Source: Ostreococcus lucimarinus
Taxonomy: Eukaryota
Assembly: GCA_000092065.1 (NCBI GenBank)
Contig: CP000591.1
Direction: 5' to 3' (one strand)
DNA: 64,000 nucleotides
How positions within the stretch are numbered: the first letter of the stretch is position 1; each line of letters starts with the position of its first letter. Below are positions 3,911 to 10,900 of this stretch, piece after piece. The position numbers were made by a program, and so were the translations under genes. Under the pieces are notes generated by a model. It did no database searches. It saw nothing but the letters and a program-made list of their open reading frames with translations, and had not been told where the DNA came from.

Positions 3911-4984
3911 TTAATGCGTCGACGTCGTCAAGTATGCGAACAACAGCATGGGCGCGCCGAAGAGGCCGACCATGGTGAGCATCGCCTGCGTGTTCAGCGC
4001 CTTGACTTCTTCTTCGTCGATTTCGCCCGCAAACTTTTCGTTCGCCATCTTGATCAGGTACTCGTCGTACGCGTCTAGTTTTGCGGCGTCCATGTAATCG
4101 AATAAGTCCGATTTCATCTTCTTGGAAGCCGTCGTCATCCCCCAAATCATTCGATCCGCTTGCTTGGACACGTTTCCGTACTGGTTTCCGATGCACCGAC
4201 GATACTGCTTCAACGCCTCATCTCGGCGCTGCAAGTTGTCCAGACAGATGGCGTAGTTGAAGATTATCCTCCCGCCCATCTCCGTCTTTTGCCCGATGCG
4301 ATCGAGCGCCCACGGCTCGAGCAAATCGAGCGCGTCTTGCATGTATCCTCGCTTCATCGCCTCGCCCGAACGCTCCAAAACCTCCCGCACCTCCGCGTAC
4401 TCCGCGTTCGTCAGCGTCATCCCCTGATCCTCGCGATATTTCGCCAATTTCTTCGCCACTCTCGCCCTTCGCGCCGCGATCGCCTCCTCGTCCTCCAACT
4501 CCTCCCGTTTAACGGTTCGTCCGCCGCCGTACGTCTTCGATATATCCGGCGGTCGCTCGAACACCCCCCACGTGCTCACCGACGGTTTATACACCGCGTC
4601 CTCCACGTCGTACCCCACCGCCTTCTCGTCCGCGTCGAACGGGTCGTAATCCCGGTCCCGCGTCAAGATGCGCACCGTCACCTCCCGTTTGCGCGTCGCC
4701 CCCGTCGCGCCGTCGCTCGCCGTCTCGCTCGCGAACGTCCCGTCCGTCGTCGACGCCTCCATCGCGTCGTCCCGATCGCCTCCGTCGCCCTCCGCGCGCG
4801 CGCGCTCCATCGCCGCCGCGTACTCGCGCGCCTTTTTCACGCGATCCTCCACCGACGCGCGCAGATCGATCCTCGCGTCCGCGTCCTCGCGCGGCGCCGC
4901 GCGCGCGCGAGAGCGACGCCGTCGCGCGACGCGCGTCGGCGCCCGCGGCCGCGCGACGCGCGCGACGCGCGCCGCGCGCGCCAT
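3911..4984 (-). CDS. conserved hypothetical protein with C-terminal transmembrane anchor
   Basis: 357-aa ORF with ATG at 4984 (rc CAT 4982-4984). It has an acidic N-terminus, a helical middle region and a hydrophobic C-terminal helix 'MLTMVGLFGAPMLLFAYL'. No family recognised. Confidence 0.5.
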   Translation of the reverse strand: MARAARVARVARPRAPTRVARRRRSRARAAPREDADARIDLRASVEDRVKKAREYAAAMERARAEGDGGDRDDAMEASTTDGTFASETASDGATGATRKREVTVRILTRDRDYDPFDADEKAVGYDVEDAVYKPSVSTWGVFERPPDISKTYGGGRTVKREELEDEEAIAARRARVAKKLAKYREDQGMTLTNAEYAEVREVLERSGEAMKRGYMQDALDLLEPWALDRIGQKTEMGGRIIFNYAICLDNLQRRDEALKQYRRCIGNQYGNVSKQADRMIWGMTTASKKMKSDLFDYMDAAKLDAYDEYLIKMANEKFAGEIDEEEVKALNTQAMLTMVGLFGAPMLLFAYLTTSTH

Positions 4985-5138
4985 CGCGCGCGCCGCTCTC
5001 GCGCGATCGCGCGCGCGCGACCGCGCGACGTTCGCGTCTCGAGGTTCGACGTCGAAACCGACGCGAGGTTCGATCGCGCGCGCTCGAACCTCGCGATCGC
5101 GGGTTCGATCGCGCGCGCGCCGACGTCACTGCGCGTCG

Positions 5139-5432
5139 ATGCCCGCGACCGGGACGGCGTCGTCGCGCGACGAGATCGTGCCCCCGCGACGAGGCGCGCG
5201 AAATCCATGGGTGCTCGTCGGTGCGGGCGCCACGGCGGCGGTGTTGCTCGCGGGATTCGTCGCGTTCAGGGCTGGGGACGCGCGCGCGTCGCAGCGGATG
5301 ATGCGCGCGCGAGTGCTCGCGCAGGGCGCGACGGTGGCGCTGATGGTGGCGACGTCCGCGGGAGGACTGTCGAGCGCGACGTCTTGGACGCTCGCGCGTC
5401 CCGGCGCGGGCGGGACGGCGGGCGAGGGGTGA
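5139..5432 (+). CDS. HIG1 (hypoxia-induced gene 1 / Rcf1-like) domain protein
   Basis: 97-aa ORF, ATG at 5139. It has two hydrophobic helices with HIG1 spacing: 'PWVLVGAGATAAVLLAGFVAFRAG' then 'RMMRARVLAQGATVALMV'. These match the PFVPIG...G and R-x-AAQG motifs of HIGD1A/Rcf1. Confidence 0.55.
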   Translation: MPATGTASSRDEIVPPRRGARNPWVLVGAGATAAVLLAGFVAFRAGDARASQRMMRARVLAQGATVALMVATSAGGLSSATSWTLARPGAGGTAGEG

Positions 5433-6424
5433 CGGACGCGCGGGCGAACGCGCGCGGGTTCGCGGCGAGCGCGACGACGACGCGCGGCGACGACGACGCG
5501 TCGACGTCGCGCGACGGAGGCGCGAGCGATGGTGGGGAGCGCGGGCGCGACGGTGACGCGAGAGACGCGCGCGCGAGGCGGGACGAGGAGTCGCGCGCGG
5601 TGCTGCGCGAACGCGCGCTGCGAGCGGCGTTGAAGCGCGTGCGCGAGCTGGGATGGACGGACGCCGCCGTCGACGCGGGATTGAGGGATTTGAATTTGTC
5701 GCCCGCGATGCGCGCGATCGTTCGCGGCGACGCGGGGGCGGGCGCGAGGGACTCGGGACCGGGCGACGGGCTCGCGGGGGAGTTGGCGGGATACTTTGAG
5801 GAGTGCGCGGACGCGGCGTTTCACGCGAAGGTCGTCGCCGAGGGCGAGACGCTGCGCGCGATGAAGTCGCGCGAGCGCGTGAAGTGGCTGATGCGCGCGC
5901 GTTTGGAGATGATCGAGTCCAAGCTCGATTCGTGGCCGCGCGCGCTCGCCGCGATGGCGACGCCGCGGTACGCGATGACGACGCTTCGGCGTCGCGCCGC
6001 GCTCGCGGATTTCATCGCCGACGCCGCGGACGTCGACGCCTTGGACGTGCTTCCGGATTCGTTGGATACGTTTCGTTGGCACGCCGAACGCGCCGCGATG
6101 CTCGCGCTGTACGCCGCCACCGAGTTACGCTTGTTGACGGATTCGAGCAAGGATCGTCGCAAGACGTGGGCCTTTCTCGACGCCCGCGTCGACGACATCG
6201 CGCGATCCCGCGTCGACGTCCTCGAGCTCAAGTCGTACATCGACGTCTTCGCGCGCGACGCCGACTTGACGACGCTCGGCGCGTCGTTCGCGAGCAAAGA
6301 CGCGCTCGCCGCGGCGTTCGCGCCCGTCGCCGACGTCTTCGCTCGCGCGTCTCGCGCCGTCTTCTCGACCCCTTCGCGCGACGCGTCCGAGCGCGACCCG
6401 CCGCGCGACTCGCCCGATCGATAG
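5207..6424 (+). CDS. COQ9: ubiquinone biosynthesis protein COQ9 (conserved core 5593-6424; 5' end uncertain)
   Basis: 'HWPRAL' appears as 'SWPRALAAMATP'. 'WHAERAAMLALYAATELRLLTDSS' and the preceding HTH region align with COQ9. The only in-frame ATG upstream of the core is 5207. It gives a 130-aa R/G/D-rich N-terminal extension and overlaps the HIG1 ORF in another frame. Confidence 0.6.
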   Translation: MGARRCGRHGGGVARGIRRVQGWGRARVAADDARASARAGRDGGADGGDVRGRTVERDVLDARASRRGRDGGRGVTDARANARGFAASATTTRGDDDASTSRDGGASDGGERGRDGDARDARARRDEESRAVLRERALRAALKRVRELGWTDAAVDAGLRDLNLSPAMRAIVRGDAGAGARDSGPGDGLAGELAGYFEECADAAFHAKVVAEGETLRAMKSRERVKWLMRARLEMIESKLDSWPRALAAMATPRYAMTTLRRRAALADFIADAADVDALDVLPDSLDTFRWHAERAAMLALYAATELRLLTDSSKDRRKTWAFLDARVDDIARSRVDVLELKSYIDVFARDADLTTLGASFASKDALAAAFAPVADVFARASRAVFSTPSRDASERDPPRDSPDR

Positions 6425-6583
6425 TTTACCCGGTAGTCTTAATGCTCACGCGCGCGCCTTTAACCGACTTCGCGCGCGCTCGCCGTCGCGTTTTGTGTCG
6501 CTTCGGTCGCTCCACTCCCGGGTGTTTCACGCCCGAATCGTCGCGCCGCCGCGCGCCGCGCGTCACGCGCGCGCGCTCGAGCG

Positions 6584-9500
6584 ATGTCGTTCGACCTGCG
6601 CTGCGCCGTCCTGTGCTACGCCCTCGCCGGCGTCGCGCACGAGCTCGCGCACGTCCTCGCGCACGCCGCGCTCGCGCTCGCGAAGCGTCGCGGGTCGGTC
6701 GCCGTCTTCGACGCGTGCGCCGCGCTCGACGCGCGCGCGTCGCCGTCGTCGCTCGCGGCGACGCTCGCGCGCGCGCTCGGACGGTGGAGCGCGTTCGCGG
6801 ACGCGCTCGACGACGCGTCGTGCGCGAACGCGCGCGCGATCGTGCGATGGGCGGGCGCGCTGGCGAGCCTGGGCGCGGCGGCGGCGGCGACGACGCGAAC
6901 GCGAGGCGACAAAAGCGGAACGAGCGCGGCGCTGCGAGTCGCGTGCTGGGCGACGGTCCTGGACGCGGTGTGCACGGACGTGCTGGACGCGCTGCCGCGC
7001 GCGCGAGGGACGGTGCTGTGCGGGAACTTTGGGATTATTTTGATAAACGCGGCGTGGTGCGAGAGCGAACGCGGGAAGCGGGCGTTTGATTTGTTGGAGA
7101 AGATGGTGTACGTGACGATGATGCGAGGGGCGCAGAGCGGTGGAGTCGTGACGTTCGACGAGTGCCGTGAGAAGGCGCGAGGGGAGGGTGCGGCTGTGGC
7201 GCTGCGCGGCGCGAGAAGTCGCGTGGTGAACATGAAGCGCACGGATTTGAGCAAGCTCGTGCGAGCAAAGGCGGAACGCGACTGCGGAGGGGCGAAGATG
7301 GGTCGACAAAACGTCACGCGCATGATCGTCGGCCACACGCGGTTCGCGACGACGTCCAAGGCTACGTTTGACGGCACGCATCCGCATCAGTGGTCGCCGC
7401 CGCAGCAGTGTCTCGTGTACGGGCAAAAACAGAAAACGCCCGGGCCGACGCGCGTCGGCGTGGAGAATTACATCACGCACAACGGCGATTTCGACTTTTA
7501 CCAAATCAACAAAAACTGGTACGAGCTCGGTGAGATGCAGCGGTGGTTAGAAATCGCCACGGGACATCCCATGCCGAGCGTGGTGGATTCTGCCGCCATC
7601 GCTGGCGTTATCGATTTACTCAGAGCGCAGGGGAGCTTCGCGCTCGCCGCGAGATTTGCGGTGTGCGTGGGGCTGAACACGAGCGACGCGTCGAAGGACG
7701 CCCCCGTGCCAACGCTCGCGAAATTCGAAGAAATCGCGCGGTATTTTGAAAACGCTTTGGATGCGTCGCTGAGTGCAGGTAAACATACCGTTCGCGAGCT
7801 CGGCTTTCAGGCGAGCACGCGCGAGTTGCTCACGGAAAAGGTCGTATCCGCGCTCGAGGGCGAAGGCAAAGCAGCGATCGAGTGCATCAACTATTACATC
7901 GATGAAGAAATGGGATCGAGTCTACGACACTTTGTGCGATCGACGATCGATGCATTCTTCGACAACGATAGCTTATTCGTGACGAAGACATTTCTCGCCA
8001 ACGCGAAAGGTTCGTTTGGTTTGATGGTGACAAACTCTTTAGATGCGCATCGGCAGCTTTGCGTCGCCGCGCGGGGGCAAACTATAAGCATCGCGTTCTA
8101 CCCGAAGAAGGGTTTGATTTGTTACGGCTCTGAACAAGCCGCCGTTAAAGCGGGTTTGTCGATCCCGACACCAGGTGGTGACGTGTTGGCGAGCGTTCAC
8201 GGCGGTGAATTCGGCGACGACAACGCCGCCGTGCGTCTCGACTTGGACGATTTGAATGGCGAAATTTGTTTGTTAGATTGGGAAGACGGCGACGAACCCG
8301 CGGTGTCGTTCCCGAACTCGCACTTGGAGCAATACCCACTCATGGGTGGCAAAGTTACCGTCGTCCTCGCCGCTGAAGGTACATCTGGCGTGAGCAAGTC
8401 AACCATCGGAACGCCTGCGCAGAGTCTCGTCATGCGCAAGCCGAGCCTACACGTGGGCGTTAGCGTGGACAAGAAGCTGTTTCGCCGAATGACTCGACTC
8501 GAAGGGAACGACCTCATCAAGCCGCTTTTACCCGATCGAGAGGACTTGGTGCTGCACGATATTCACGATATTCCCAAAATTTTGCGAAACATTCAGGAAG
8601 ACTGGCAAAATCGCCCACAGGCCACGATTAGTCTCAATCGACTCACGGCTTGGAACCTTGCGCGTTGTTTGCGGCGACGTCTCGATCGCCGACTCAACAG
8701 TACGACAAAGTCATCGCGTTCAATAGATGTCGTCGTCACCGGTTGTGAAGTGTCGCTTTGGCTAGCCGAACAATTTGCGGCTGATTTACAGCAAGCGTTC
8801 CCCCGGCTGACGGTGAAAGCTGTGAGCTCGAATAAAATACTCGGTTTGTTCGGCCAAGACATTCCCATCCCAACAGTGGGATTCCCAGACTCAAAGAAGA
8901 ACGATGACTTTACGGACTCTGTCGTCATTGTCGTCAGTCACTCTGGCGGGACGTTTGCGCCACTCGCGACTTCGAATCTCCTCGTGAGCTCCACGAGCTC
9001 CATCTTCGTCGTCGCCAGCGAATGGGACACACAAATCGGCAAACAACTCAGAGCGATCAAGTCTGATGGGGCCTTCTGCAGCCGTATCTTTAGCACAGAT
9101 GTTGGCGTCCGACCAGCTGAGCCGTGTTCGGTGAGCGTTGCGGCGACGCAGCAACTTTTGACGCAAATTTTCATGCACATGTCACTCGTGATTCTCGGTA
9201 ACGCCGATTACCGCAAGTACGCGGGCGCCGTGGTTACGAAGCACGACTTGGCGGAACTCGAAAGGTGCAATCAAATGAACATCACCGCGCTGGAAGAAAT
9301 AGTGGGAGTGAAAGCGACGGGCGAAAAGGTCGACTCGTCGACGGAGCGTAGTCTTCGAGCGCAAGGCGACGAGTGGTCCGATCACGTTCTCGAAGGCGTC
9401 AAGGGGTGGATGATGTCGTTTGCATACATCGTCGGCACCGTAACGGCGGGATACCCGCTCATCACCGGCGTTGCCGCCGCTTGTGGACTCGCGGCGACTT

Positions 9501-10900
9501 GGGCGTTTTACCTCACACGATTCTTCGACGCGTTGATTTACGTGTTTCTTCCTCAAATCAACATAACCATTATTCGTTTGGTGCAAGGACGAAACTTGCG
9601 TCATCGCATGACGGGTCGAACGGTTGTCATCGGCGACGTTCCGTGGGTCGCACAGGCTGCAGATGCGTTTCTGTCAAAGATTTTTGCATGCTCGTACTCT
9701 GCCGCTGGGTTGAACGTTCTCAGTGGTAATCCAAACGATCATCTCGTGCACCGACACACGCACCGCGTCGTTCGCGGCGCATTGCTCGTGGTCGGTCGTC
9801 CCGACGGTAGGCTCGCCGCGCTAACGTCCGCTGAGGCGACGACATCGCTCTCGCTCGCCCAAGCAAGTTCTATCCAAAGTTACGGCGGAACGTGCGAATC
9901 GATCACGATCGGGCACTCACCGTATAAGCTTCCACTATCAAAGAATGGTATCTTCCTCAAACGACACCGCCCGATGTACTTGTGCGAGAAGCTCGTGCTC
10001 GAGCGCGAGGGGGAAAAGAGTTTAGACGGTCGCTCGCCCGGCTCCTTGCTCGGCGTGTACAACAAGTATCACGAGGAAGGGGCGGAACTCTCTGTACATT
10101 CGCTTTCGCGTCGAAACGCGGTGCAAGTTCTCACAGCTTCGAGGATTAAGGCGGATAGACAGAAGGGTAATTTGCGCTCGGTGTTCGACGAAATCGACGT
10201 CAACCGCGACGGCAAACTATGCCTCGCTGAGTTCACGCAAGCGTACAAGAAAGTGGACGAATCGCTCACAGACGCACAAATAGCGAAGCTTTTCCGCGAT
10301 GCAGACGTTGACAACAGCGGTACATTGGACTACGATGAGTTTTGCGAAGTCATGAACCTTCCCGAAATGGACATGTTGAACATTCTCGAGGCAGATGCTC
10401 GAAACGAGGAAGGTTTGCTCATGGTGGAGCCGTCGCACGAAGATTATTTCGGGCAATCCATTCGACGAAGCGCACCGAAAAAGATCAAGGCGTACACTCT
10501 GGTGGAGTCTCAAGAGTTCAGCATGAGCTTGTACGAATCACGAATCGCGTCTTTGCAGCGCTTCGTCTCCATGACGGTGATGTTTCACCAAATGGGTGAC
10601 CGGGCTCAAAAGTTTTGGCGAAACGTCTCTTTCGGATATCTGGGATATCGCATGGATCGCACGCACAGTATCATGCGTATCGCCACCACGGCCTCACCCG
10701 TGAGCGGCGCTGAAGTGCGCGACCGGCGTCATTTTATCGCCCTCGTCACCGCGTTCAACAACGCGCTCGGCGTCATCGACAACTCCGGCCACATTCTTCT
10801 CTCTCGAAGACGCACGGAAAGCTACCGCCTCACATCGCGGCAAAAGTCCGCCGCGAGGCTTTCGCGTCAGAGCTCCGTCGCTAGCGCCACTGGCGCGTGA
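6584..10900 (+). CDS. GFAT-like protein: class-II glutamine amidotransferase domain + two SIS domains + transmembrane segments + C-terminal EF-hand pair
   Basis: Single 1438-aa ORF. 'CGNFGIIL...GHTRFATTS...ITHNGDFDFY' matches the GFAT N-terminal Ntn-amidotransferase (MCGIFAY / HTRWATHG / HNGIITNY). 'VIVVSHSGGTFAPL' matches the SIS motif S-x-SGET. A second SIS-like block follows hydrophobic helices. DxDxDG EF-hands: 'DVNRDGKLCLAEF' and 'DVDNSGTLDYDEF'. Confidence 0.8.
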   Translation: MSFDLRCAVLCYALAGVAHELAHVLAHAALALAKRRGSVAVFDACAALDARASPSSLAATLARALGRWSAFADALDDASCANARAIVRWAGALASLGAAAAATTRTRGDKSGTSAALRVACWATVLDAVCTDVLDALPRARGTVLCGNFGIILINAAWCESERGKRAFDLLEKMVYVTMMRGAQSGGVVTFDECREKARGEGAAVALRGARSRVVNMKRTDLSKLVRAKAERDCGGAKMGRQNVTRMIVGHTRFATTSKATFDGTHPHQWSPPQQCLVYGQKQKTPGPTRVGVENYITHNGDFDFYQINKNWYELGEMQRWLEIATGHPMPSVVDSAAIAGVIDLLRAQGSFALAARFAVCVGLNTSDASKDAPVPTLAKFEEIARYFENALDASLSAGKHTVRELGFQASTRELLTEKVVSALEGEGKAAIECINYYIDEEMGSSLRHFVRSTIDAFFDNDSLFVTKTFLANAKGSFGLMVTNSLDAHRQLCVAARGQTISIAFYPKKGLICYGSEQAAVKAGLSIPTPGGDVLASVHGGEFGDDNAAVRLDLDDLNGEICLLDWEDGDEPAVSFPNSHLEQYPLMGGKVTVVLAAEGTSGVSKSTIGTPAQSLVMRKPSLHVGVSVDKKLFRRMTRLEGNDLIKPLLPDREDLVLHDIHDIPKILRNIQEDWQNRPQATISLNRLTAWNLARCLRRRLDRRLNSTTKSSRSIDVVVTGCEVSLWLAEQFAADLQQAFPRLTVKAVSSNKILGLFGQDIPIPTVGFPDSKKNDDFTDSVVIVVSHSGGTFAPLATSNLLVSSTSSIFVVASEWDTQIGKQLRAIKSDGAFCSRIFSTDVGVRPAEPCSVSVAATQQLLTQIFMHMSLVILGNADYRKYAGAVVTKHDLAELERCNQMNITALEEIVGVKATGEKVDSSTERSLRAQGDEWSDHVLEGVKGWMMSFAYIVGTVTAGYPLITGVAAACGLAATWAFYLTRFFDALIYVFLPQINITIIRLVQGRNLRHRMTGRTVVIGDVPWVAQAADAFLSKIFACSYSAAGLNVLSGNPNDHLVHRHTHRVVRGALLVVGRPDGRLAALTSAEATTSLSLAQASSIQSYGGTCESITIGHSPYKLPLSKNGIFLKRHRPMYLCEKLVLEREGEKSLDGRSPGSLLGVYNKYHEEGAELSVHSLSRRNAVQVLTASRIKADRQKGNLRSVFDEIDVNRDGKLCLAEFTQAYKKVDESLTDAQIAKLFRDADVDNSGTLDYDEFCEVMNLPEMDMLNILEADARNEEGLLMVEPSHEDYFGQSIRRSAPKKIKAYTLVESQEFSMSLYESRIASLQRFVSMTVMFHQMGDRAQKFWRNVSFGYLGYRMDRTHSIMRIATTASPVSGAEVRDRRHFIALVTAFNNALGVIDNSGHILLSRRRTESYRLTSRQKSAARLSRQSSVASATGA

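Follow-up and report, generated by a model that had tools for sequence, protein, structure and literature searches.

A single open reading frame (ORF) at positions 6584..10900 on the plus strand of a 64,000-nucleotide window from Ostreococcus lucimarinus (contig CP000591.1; the window is the whole stretch of DNA analysed, and all positions are counted along it) encodes a protein of 1438 amino acids (aa) with a composite architecture. Its core is a class-II, N-terminal nucleophile (Ntn) glutaminase followed by a double-SIS module of the GlmS-isomerase fold, and an EF-hand pair is placed between the second SIS subdomain (SIS2) and a near-invariant C-terminal module. The novelty lies in the combination of a known catalytic core with four unprecedented additions: an N-terminal leader carrying an HExxH motif, a helical insert within the glutaminase domain, a hydrophobic hairpin, and the EF-hand pair with its C-terminal module. 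We hold the balance to be roughly even on whether this protein is the prasinophyte (Mamiellophyceae-type) orthologue of an uncharacterised, algal-restricted and very divergent family of GlmS/GFAT-type amidotransferases. An original prediction made from the letters of this stretch knew of no earlier description of such an architecture, and our literature search likewise found no account of the family or of its architecture. All features of the gene given below lie on the plus strand.

The ORF listing shows a complete single-gene frame, which starts at an ATG, runs uninterrupted through 1438 codons to a stop codon and is preceded by in-frame stops 40-55 codons upstream of position 6584; the preceding gene, COQ9, ends at 6424. 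The extent of the frame was as originally predicted, and both peptides quoted in that prediction are found in the translation. Independent Logan/JGI contigs carry a call for exactly this 1438-aa product, flanked by the same neighbours, and complete transcripts from MMETSP and Tara, coding for 1419-1471 aa, occur in the clusters of close homologues. One such cluster (P0007, 69 % identity) holds MMETSP transcripts marked complete, of 1419-1420 aa, and another (P0012, 66 % identity) contains a Bathycoccus prasinos protein. Altogether 292 homologues were retrieved; among the best 120 of these, to which the counts out of 120 below refer, are collinear proteins of full length, 1300-1900 aa long and 43-75 % identical. 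Given that the protein is conserved over its full length, that complete transcripts exist and that independent assemblies carry the same product, the ORF is one real transcribed gene and its fusion is ancient. Two checks proposed with the prediction, on conservation of the fusion in relatives and on a single transcript, thereby come out in its favour, the latter through the complete-ORF transcripts of close relatives.

The homologues come from prasinophyte-type contigs, diatoms (Thalassiosira, Cylindrotheca, Seminavis, Epithemia, Pseudo-nitzschia and others), one pelagophyte, Symbiodiniaceae dinoflagellates and Pycnococcus/Pseudoscourfieldia, and those that bear an organism name are all photosynthetic protists. 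Across these distant lineages GHTRFAT is retained in 115/120 sequences, HNGD in 118/120 and RPDGRL in 116/120, a degree of motif sharing that points to conservation beyond chance. No relatives were found in 185,579 prokaryotic species genomes or in IMG/VR, in scans that rest on two peptide patterns and are weak evidence of absence. Family members are deposited in UniRef and NCBI under names such as 'hypothetical protein', 'EF-hand domain-containing protein', 'calmodulin' and 'glutamine amidotransferase type-2 domain-containing protein', the last of which, in some UniRef entries, may reflect a match to the PROSITE type-2 GATase profile.

The class-II glutamine amidotransferase (GATase) domain spans 7019..8383 (aa 146 to about 600) and was delimited by Foldseek, hhalign and motif conservation. 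It starts at the Cys of the CGNFG motif, which is residue 146 and not 147 as first numbered; that this Cys is internal in the encoded chain was correctly anticipated, 145 aa preceding it. Conventional searches do not see the domain. A Pfam scan of the whole protein gave no GATase or SIS model at E<=1, precomputed Pfam results for the 120 homologues hold no GATase model, and the NCBIfam glmS models TIGR01135 and NF001484 reach 10.3 bits (cut-off 418) and 11.8 bits (cut-off 381), respectively, matching only aa 243-272. Similarly, a 15-sequence family profile searched against PDB sequences returned no GlmS and only noise. With the standard hidden Markov models (HMMs) all missing the catalytic domains, public annotation shows just an 'EF-hand protein' or a 'hypothetical protein'.

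Structure brings the relationship out. An AlphaFold model of aa 1-1170 (model 1) has a predicted local distance difference test score (pLDDT) of 61.5 overall and of 75-94 over much of the GATase region and the first SIS subdomain (SIS1), and its top 23 Foldseek matches are full-length human GFAT-1 or E. coli GlmS (E 2e-9 to 3e-7, about 820 aligned columns, 10-12 % identity). Aligned by hhalign to a single GlmS or to a profile of nine reference GlmS sequences, for which plasmid-borne GlmS/NodM sequences were used, the protein yields only short collinear motifs. A forced global alignment (hhalign -glob) of the N-terminal half of the GATase domain to the same nine-sequence profile is collinear over 133 columns (E 9.1e-6) and equates C146 with Cys1, R181-G182 with R26-G27, R253 with R73, T256 with T76, the oxyanion pair N300-G301 with N98-G99 and D335 with D123 of GlmS; HTRFAT falls on HTRWAT and HPH on HPH. 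The corresponding motif blocks are kept in 102-118 of the 120 homologues. As aligned, the glutaminase keeps all glutamine-binding and catalytic positions.

The domain is much larger than its GlmS counterpart (about 455 aa in this family vs about 240), and model 1 and the alignment place a helical subdomain of about 130 aa, which has no counterpart in GlmS, within the GATase fold (7607..8002; aa about 342-473). Its helices (352-473) are modelled at pLDDT 77-94, and it ends in an invariant DAFFDNDL that directly precedes the KGSFGL strand.

Upstream of Cys146 lies a family-specific leader (6584..7018; aa 1-145), for which model 1 and the alignment indicate three long, hydrophobic helices, L1 (5-35), L2 (78-106) and L3 (112-133). 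An HExxH motif (H19-E-L-A-H23; 6638..6652), invariant in the leader alignment, sits in the middle of L1, and an (E/D)xxxD motif on L3 (D128...D132; 6965..6979) is a candidate third metal ligand. Among 23 aligned leaders H19, E20, H23, R67, S95, T124 and D132 are invariant and position 128 is always E or D. CGNFG is present in 104/120 homologues, 91 of which (91/104) have HExxH 95-176 aa upstream of it. The Cys is internal in all homologues and none begins with Met-Cys, the smallest Cys position, 34, being found in truncated models; the residue before the Cys varies across leaders, which is compatible with autoprocessing. A leader profile searched against 1.84e9 representative proteins gave 469 matches, and since every match listed runs to the CGNFG block at the profile end and the short ones inspected are fragments continuing into the GATase domain, the leader appears to exist only as part of this enzyme family. 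Neither Pfam nor NCBIfam gave the leader a significant match and NCBIfam gave nothing consistent; Peptidase_M50 was hit in 3/23 leaders (best E 0.027) and M50B in 1/23 (E 0.015), all sub-threshold, and HExxH is present while the LDG motif is absent. The leader was rightly described as Ala-rich (29 % Ala; 145 aa against the ~146 claimed), but one role suggested for it, that of a transit peptide, gives way to a conserved, family-specific helical domain with an invariant HExxH. Protein-level conservation and the invariant polar residues rule out both a transit peptide and a low-complexity artefact.

The SIS module is split in two. SIS1 (8546..9337; aa about 655-918) carries GCEVSLW, SHSGGTF and AEPCSVSV, and SIS2 (9587..10003; aa about 1002-1140) carries invariant FLSK, NPxDH[LF]VHRxTHRVVRG, RPDGRL and CESITIGH motifs. 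Identification is by fold only: Pfam SIS (PF01380) has no match at E<=1, and forced global alignment (hhalign) of SIS1 and SIS2 to the nine-sequence GlmS profile gave no usable alignment. The phosphate loop of SIS1 is kept, SHSGGT (aa 785-790) aligning to SQSGET of GlmS (hhalign local E 0.068) and S[HQ]SGG[TS]F recurring in 114/120 homologues. With this SxSGxT loop in place, the SIS acceptor site probably binds a phosphorylated sugar. In structure comparison GlmS/GFAT is the best fold match both for the whole core and for its isomerase half, with SIS-type glucosamine 6-phosphate (GlcN6P) deaminase at 27.3, AgaS at 26 and FrlB at 22.7; the order of a glutaminase and then two SIS subdomains of the GlmS isomerase fold is therefore recovered. 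Through the fold match, the collinear glutaminase residues and the SHSGGT/SQSGET alignment, the GFAT-like core is real but extremely divergent. The predicted GATase and two SIS domains in GFAT/GlmS order thus stand at the level of the fold (Foldseek, collinear motifs) but not at that of the Pfam GATase and SIS HMMs, which fail.

The LAKSVTVE C-tail, identical in the nine reference GlmS sequences, is absent here. The isomerase/synthase catalytic residues of E. coli GlmS are E488, H504 and K603; in a register set by eye, the invariant K1032 would fall at E488 and either G1048/N1049 or D1052-H1053 at H504, and the helix end that corresponds to E488 shows no evident acidic residue. Thalassiosira is described as having 6-7 canonical GFATs, each with Pfam GATase_6 and two SIS domains (10.64898/2026.07.09.737548). 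It carries the present family too, so that the two coexist there. The different SIS2 motifs, the missing C-tail and the presence of canonical GFATs alongside in Thalassiosira argue for a different product, or at least for a role that is not redundant with canonical GFAT. The predicted coupling of hexosamine synthesis to calcium is accordingly not supported: the SIS subdomains do not align with GlmS, the C-tail is gone, no acidic equivalent of E488 is seen by eye and ordinary GFATs are at hand in Thalassiosira.

The His-rich SIS2 motif NPxDH[LF]VHRxTHRVVRG (9728-9778; aa 1049-1065), found in 105/120 homologues, places 3-4 His and an Asp within 12 residues and could form a metal site. The list of PDB matches includes a Zn-bound SIS domain (7dnr).

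Between the two SIS subdomains lies a hydrophobic hairpin (9392..9586), made of helix A (aa 937-966, with a GYP kink) and helix B (972-1001), which is a candidate membrane anchor. A second AlphaFold model (model 2; predicted template modelling score, pTM, 0.83) shows both helices at pLDDT of about 86-91. Insertion energy, taken as the summed biological-scale free energy, nears zero in this protein only for segment 959-977, which runs across a loop whose sequence is polar in diatoms and dinoflagellates. We therefore reject this segment as a single conserved transmembrane helix. The pattern of variation points the other way. Surfaces that vary and yet stay apolar are a signature of lipid contact. 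Each of the five helices L1, L2, L3, A and B has 13-24 variable columns, which are 57-77 % apolar and 5-12 % charged (62-75 % apolar in the leader helices; 57-77 % apolar and 5-8 % charged in the hairpin), and soluble control helices have 21-48 % charged residues in theirs. That the helix faces vary while remaining apolar suggests that five helices, and not two, contact lipid. Lys and Arg together average 2.4 in the stretch preceding helix A, fall to 0.2 in the A-B loop and reach 3.8 past helix B. Read from composition, this follows the positive-inside rule and would leave both SIS subdomains on one side of the membrane, as the fold requires.

Taken together, these patterns make membrane embedding the moderately favoured state. 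If the protein is so embedded, it has five helices and holds a set of invariant polar residues (HExxH, S95, T124, D132, D982, Q991 and R998) inside the bilayer. The hydrophobic membrane helices of the original prediction are to this extent made plausible by apolar variable faces and hairpin charges, but their hydrophobicity is marginal and the segment quoted spans the loop that is polar elsewhere.

Downstream of SIS2, the EF-hand pair (10118..10357; helices aa 1179-1258) is the only part of the enzyme caught by routine annotation, with Pfam EF-hand_7 (PF13499) scoring 60.2 bits over aa 1197-1257 (cut-off 30; E 2.6e-16) and PDB sequence matches to calmodulin/CDPK at 1e-10 to 1e-13. The predicted Ca2+ loops DVNRDGKLCLAE (aa 1205-1216) and DVDNSGTLDYDE (aa 1241-1252) are canonical 12-residue loops by sequence, with ligands at positions 1, 3, 5 and 12 and Gly at position 6. 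The pair and a significant HMM match were foreseen, but the loops, said to be DxDxDG, are literally DxNxDG and DxDxSG; the further extension of about 200 residues after them exists but measures about 180.

In dinoflagellate (P0106, P0116, P0120) and Pycnococcus (P0108) members and in P0111 the leader, core and C-terminal module are kept, and the EF region is degenerate or undetected by Pfam. Part of the family thus seems to have a calcium module that either degenerated or was at no time canonical. Given these degenerate members and the loss of one or both canonical loops in about half of the full-length homologues, Ca2+ control would be lineage-dependent and not universal.

The C-terminal module itself (10421..10723; aa about 1280-1380) was delimited by conservation, which reaches 0.80-0.89. 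It carries LYESRIASLQRF on a long helix and the near-invariant YRMDRTHSIMRIATTASPVSGAEVR at 10646-10720, which at 0.89 is among the most conserved stretches of the protein; RTHSIMRIATTASPVSG-type motifs are found in 90/120 homologues, and Pfam has no match for the module. HSIMRIATT (10664-10690; aa 1361-1369), within RTHSIMRIATTASPVSG, is the sole segment of model 2 with pLDDT below 50. The coincidence of the most conserved C-terminal motif with the lone low-pLDDT segment suggests that aa 1361-1369 may dock on something missing from that model, namely the glutaminase domain, another partner or a ligand. The chain ends in a variable, basic helix and tail (10724..10897; aa 1381-1438), with conservation of 0.11-0.41 and a helix at aa 1375-1435 in model 2.

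The surroundings of the gene are unremarkable. Its neighbours (locus L010; 1538-3883, 5450-6424, 10991-12370 and 12422-14653 (-)) include an ABC transporter (ABC_membrane_2 + ABC_tran), a small HIG_1_N gene, COQ9, an Obg-family GTPase and a phosphatidylserine synthase. The genes stand close together, about 50-160 bp apart, and their order recurs on independent Logan contigs; they are ordinary nuclear genes of a compact picoeukaryote genome and give no hint of function.

Base composition changes steeply along the gene. GC at third codon positions (GC3) falls from 0.97 in codons 1-100 to 0.82 in codons 101-200 and then to about 0.56-0.72, and overall GC drops from 0.79 to about 0.52-0.58; this 5'-to-3' gradient accounts for the Ala-rich leader in O. 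lucimarinus. Both strands of 4160-7504 hold long overlapping ORFs in several frames with Arg/Ala-rich translations, among them 4160..6424 (754 aa, TTG start), 5803..7089 and 6563..7504 (-). Within this cluster only the COQ9-like part (about 5450-6424) has a Pfam match, and the spurious-looking remainder looks like a by-product of very high GC and not like genes. In such a GC-rich region ORF length is by itself no proof, and conservation is decisive. A near-identical metagenome protein (P0001, 1486 aa) has 48 additional N-terminal residues (window 6440-6583) read from a non-ATG start, which looks like a prokaryote-style gene-caller artefact; by comparison with the N-termini of the closest homologues, the eukaryotic start is taken to be the ATG at 6584.

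What could such an assembly do? Class-II amidotransferases act through the free alpha-amino group of an N-terminal Cys. Their nucleophile is exposed when the few residues preceding it in the precursor are cleaved autocatalytically (PMC9140057). We propose, giving the scheme as a whole about an even chance, a membrane-anchored, Ca2+-regulated class-II amidotransferase that is cleaved before Cys146 and uses a phospho-sugar-like acceptor. The precursor would be cut at the X-Cys146 bond to expose the N-terminal nucleophile, either autocatalytically, as in other class-II amidotransferases, or with the help of the HExxH...(E/D)xxxD site of the leader. The three leader helices and the inter-SIS hairpin would form a five-helix membrane bundle tethering the catalytic domains to one membrane face, where the SIS module would bind a phospho-sugar-like acceptor for the ammonia released from glutamine; either this acceptor or the reaction would be other than in the conversion of fructose 6-phosphate (Fru6P) to GlcN6P. 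The C-tail of GlmS closes the sugar site and the ammonia channel. By analogy, Ca2+ binding to the EF-hands may reposition the C-terminal module as a lid and so gate activity; the position of the EF-hand pair between SIS2 and this module suggests Ca2+-dependent positioning.

Several observations weigh against this proposal. Cleavage at Cys146 is read from sequence, and model 1, which covers the leader and the GATase domain, is of no more than moderate quality (pLDDT 61.5) and drops below 50 around Cys146. The replacement of E488 and H504 of GlmS rests on by-eye alignment. Family medians of the insertion energy of the candidate helices are a marginal 3-7 kcal/mol, with 6.5 for a buried SIS1 core helix, and the loop charges do not settle the topology of the leader. 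About half of the full-length homologues are without two canonical EF loops, as counted by regular expression.

The alternatives differ in how much of the proposal they would overturn. The most radical one, that the ORF is open merely by chance, in GC-rich DNA, or wrongly joins what are really two or more genes, could draw on the crowd of spurious overlapping ORFs on both strands of 4160-7504 and on the 48 residues wrongly added in the P0001 call. It is effectively refuted, and we reject it as having next to no probability left, by full-length collinear homologues in at least four algal lineages of differing base composition, by the complete transcripts in close clusters, by the identical product on independent assemblies and by conservation of the leader at the protein level. 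A much more serious contender, if still rather unlikely, concerns the membrane: the leader, the A/B and the C-terminal helices may instead form a buried soluble bundle or an oligomerisation interface in a cytosolic protein. The overlap of the insertion energies with that of the buried SIS1 core helix, the best segment being one that spans a loop polar in other lineages, and the confidence with which AlphaFold packs A and B into a globular model without any membrane are all points in its favour. Buried helices are, however, expected to be conserved, and those found here vary in many columns while keeping apolar faces, unlike every soluble control; moreover, the charges around the hairpin obey the positive-inside rule.

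Two further alternatives leave the fold alone and question the chemistry, and we judge both improbable, to nearly the same degree. In the first, which was the view of the original prediction, the protein is a plain, divergent GFAT isoform that still converts Fru6P and glutamine to GlcN6P, now under calcium control. GlmS/GFAT is the best structural match for both halves, the protein retains the glutaminase residues and the phosphate loop of SIS1, and in one register the invariant D1052-H1053 could equal H504; yet TIGR01135 and NF001484 stay at 10-12 bits where 381-418 are required, the GlmS profile can be aligned with neither SIS subdomain, the LAKSVTVE found in all nine references is absent, the E488 helix end seems to bear the invariant K1032 in place of an acidic residue, and Thalassiosira already has its 6-7 canonical GFATs. 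In the other, given a shade more weight, the protein is a non-catalytic pseudo-enzyme or sensor, in which the leader stays on, Cys146 is no nucleophile, and the GATase and SIS domains do no more than bind glutamine and/or sugar phosphate; together with the EF-hands they would inform the membrane-embedded helices of nutrient and Ca2+ status. This would suit a Cys that is internal in every homologue and never follows an initiator Met, a leader kept as a domain and not as a disposable propeptide, and the invariant polar residues within hydrophobic helices (HExxH, S95, T124, D132, D982, Q991, R998). Against it, the whole glutaminase constellation, including the oxyanion N-G pair and the Asp that binds the alpha-amino group of glutamine, is under strong purifying selection across long-diverged lineages, and Ntn precursors normally hold an internal nucleophile until self-processing (PMC9140057). 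It is this selection on all glutaminase residues that makes an active enzyme with a cleaved precursor, as proposed above, the most economical account.

An extended version of our proposal is, in our estimate, improbable as well. Here the family would be a new class of Ntn amidotransferase in the form of a polytopic membrane enzyme. The HExxH leader would serve as a pro-domain resembling an intramembrane metalloprotease, which frees Cys146 by cutting its own chain and then becomes part of the five-helix bundle, the core would make an aminated sugar phosphate at the membrane surface, and the EF-hands would gate it through a lid formed by RTHSIMRIATTASPVSG. If true, marine phytoplankton of the green and red plastid lineages would have in common a nitrogen-assimilating step switched by Ca2+, to which animals, fungi, land plants and prokaryotes offer no counterpart.

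Even the more modest proposal would matter beyond this locus. Class-II amidotransferases are among the best understood nitrogen-transfer enzymes, and GFAT is the textbook case of a soluble, metabolite-regulated one. A branch under strong conservation in diatoms, dinoflagellates, pelagophytes and prasinophytes would bring in a new mode of regulation and of cell biology, distinguished by a probable tether to the membrane, a calcium sensor of its own and a large conserved pro-domain with a metalloprotease-like motif. The host algae contribute a large share of marine primary production, and calcium signalling in diatoms reports nutrient resupply. A Ca2+-gated, glutamine-consuming enzyme, if that is what the family is, would directly link nutrient signalling to nitrogen or amino-sugar metabolism.

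Set beside known systems, each part of the protein has a relative, and each differs from it. For the calcium module the comparison is with EF-hand-regulated CDPKs and with the SCaMC/Aralar mitochondrial carriers; to our knowledge no amidotransferase or SIS enzyme with a fused EF-hand is known, and our literature search found none. The leader recalls proteases of the site-2 type (Peptidase_M50/M50B) in having HExxH in the middle of a hydrophobic helix and an acidic residue on a later hydrophobic helix. Unlike them, it is without NxxPxxxLDG and has three helices only, in about 135 aa, with 4/23 leaders matching, sub-threshold; the leader profile search gave no relatives outside this algal family, and protease activity of the leader is put forward as pure conjecture. 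Double-SIS enzymes such as SIS-type GlcN6P deaminase, the tagatose-6-phosphate isomerase AgaS and the FrlB/FraB deglycases are without the glutaminase, the hydrophobic insertion, the EF-hands and the C-terminal module.

Propeptides are familiar among class-II amidotransferases from B. subtilis PurF and glutamate synthase. As in class-II enzymes of the PurF type (MEROPS C44) at large, the Cys of the precursor is internal here; in class-II amidotransferases it is exposed by autocatalytic removal of a few residues (PMC9140057). Known PurF-type propeptides are short and without a conserved domain, whereas the algal leader is helical and hydrophobic, measures 95-176 aa from HExxH to the Cys, bears invariant polar residues and is conserved across phyla.

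The closest relatives remain GlmS, GFAT and Gfa1 (EC 2.6.1.16), which likewise join a class-II Ntn glutaminase and two SIS subdomains in one chain and share the equivalents of Cys1, R26, R73, T76, N98-G99 and D123 as well as the SxSGxT phosphate loop. The differences are substantial: identity is 10-12 % and the algal family is invisible to Pfam, NCBIfam and PDB-sequence profiles; the algal Cys stands behind a conserved 145-aa leader and that of GlmS behind the initiator Met; about 130 aa are inserted in the glutaminase and about 65 hydrophobic aa between the SIS subdomains; the LAKSVTVE tail is wanting and SIS2 shows FLSK, DHLVHRHTHR and RPDGRL instead; and an EF-hand pair and a 180-aa C-terminal extension are added. 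Having failed the HMM thresholds and lacking the C-tail, the protein is not filed as a GlmS/GFAT orthologue, but it descends from, and would work like, a class-II amidotransferase of the GlmS/GFAT type.

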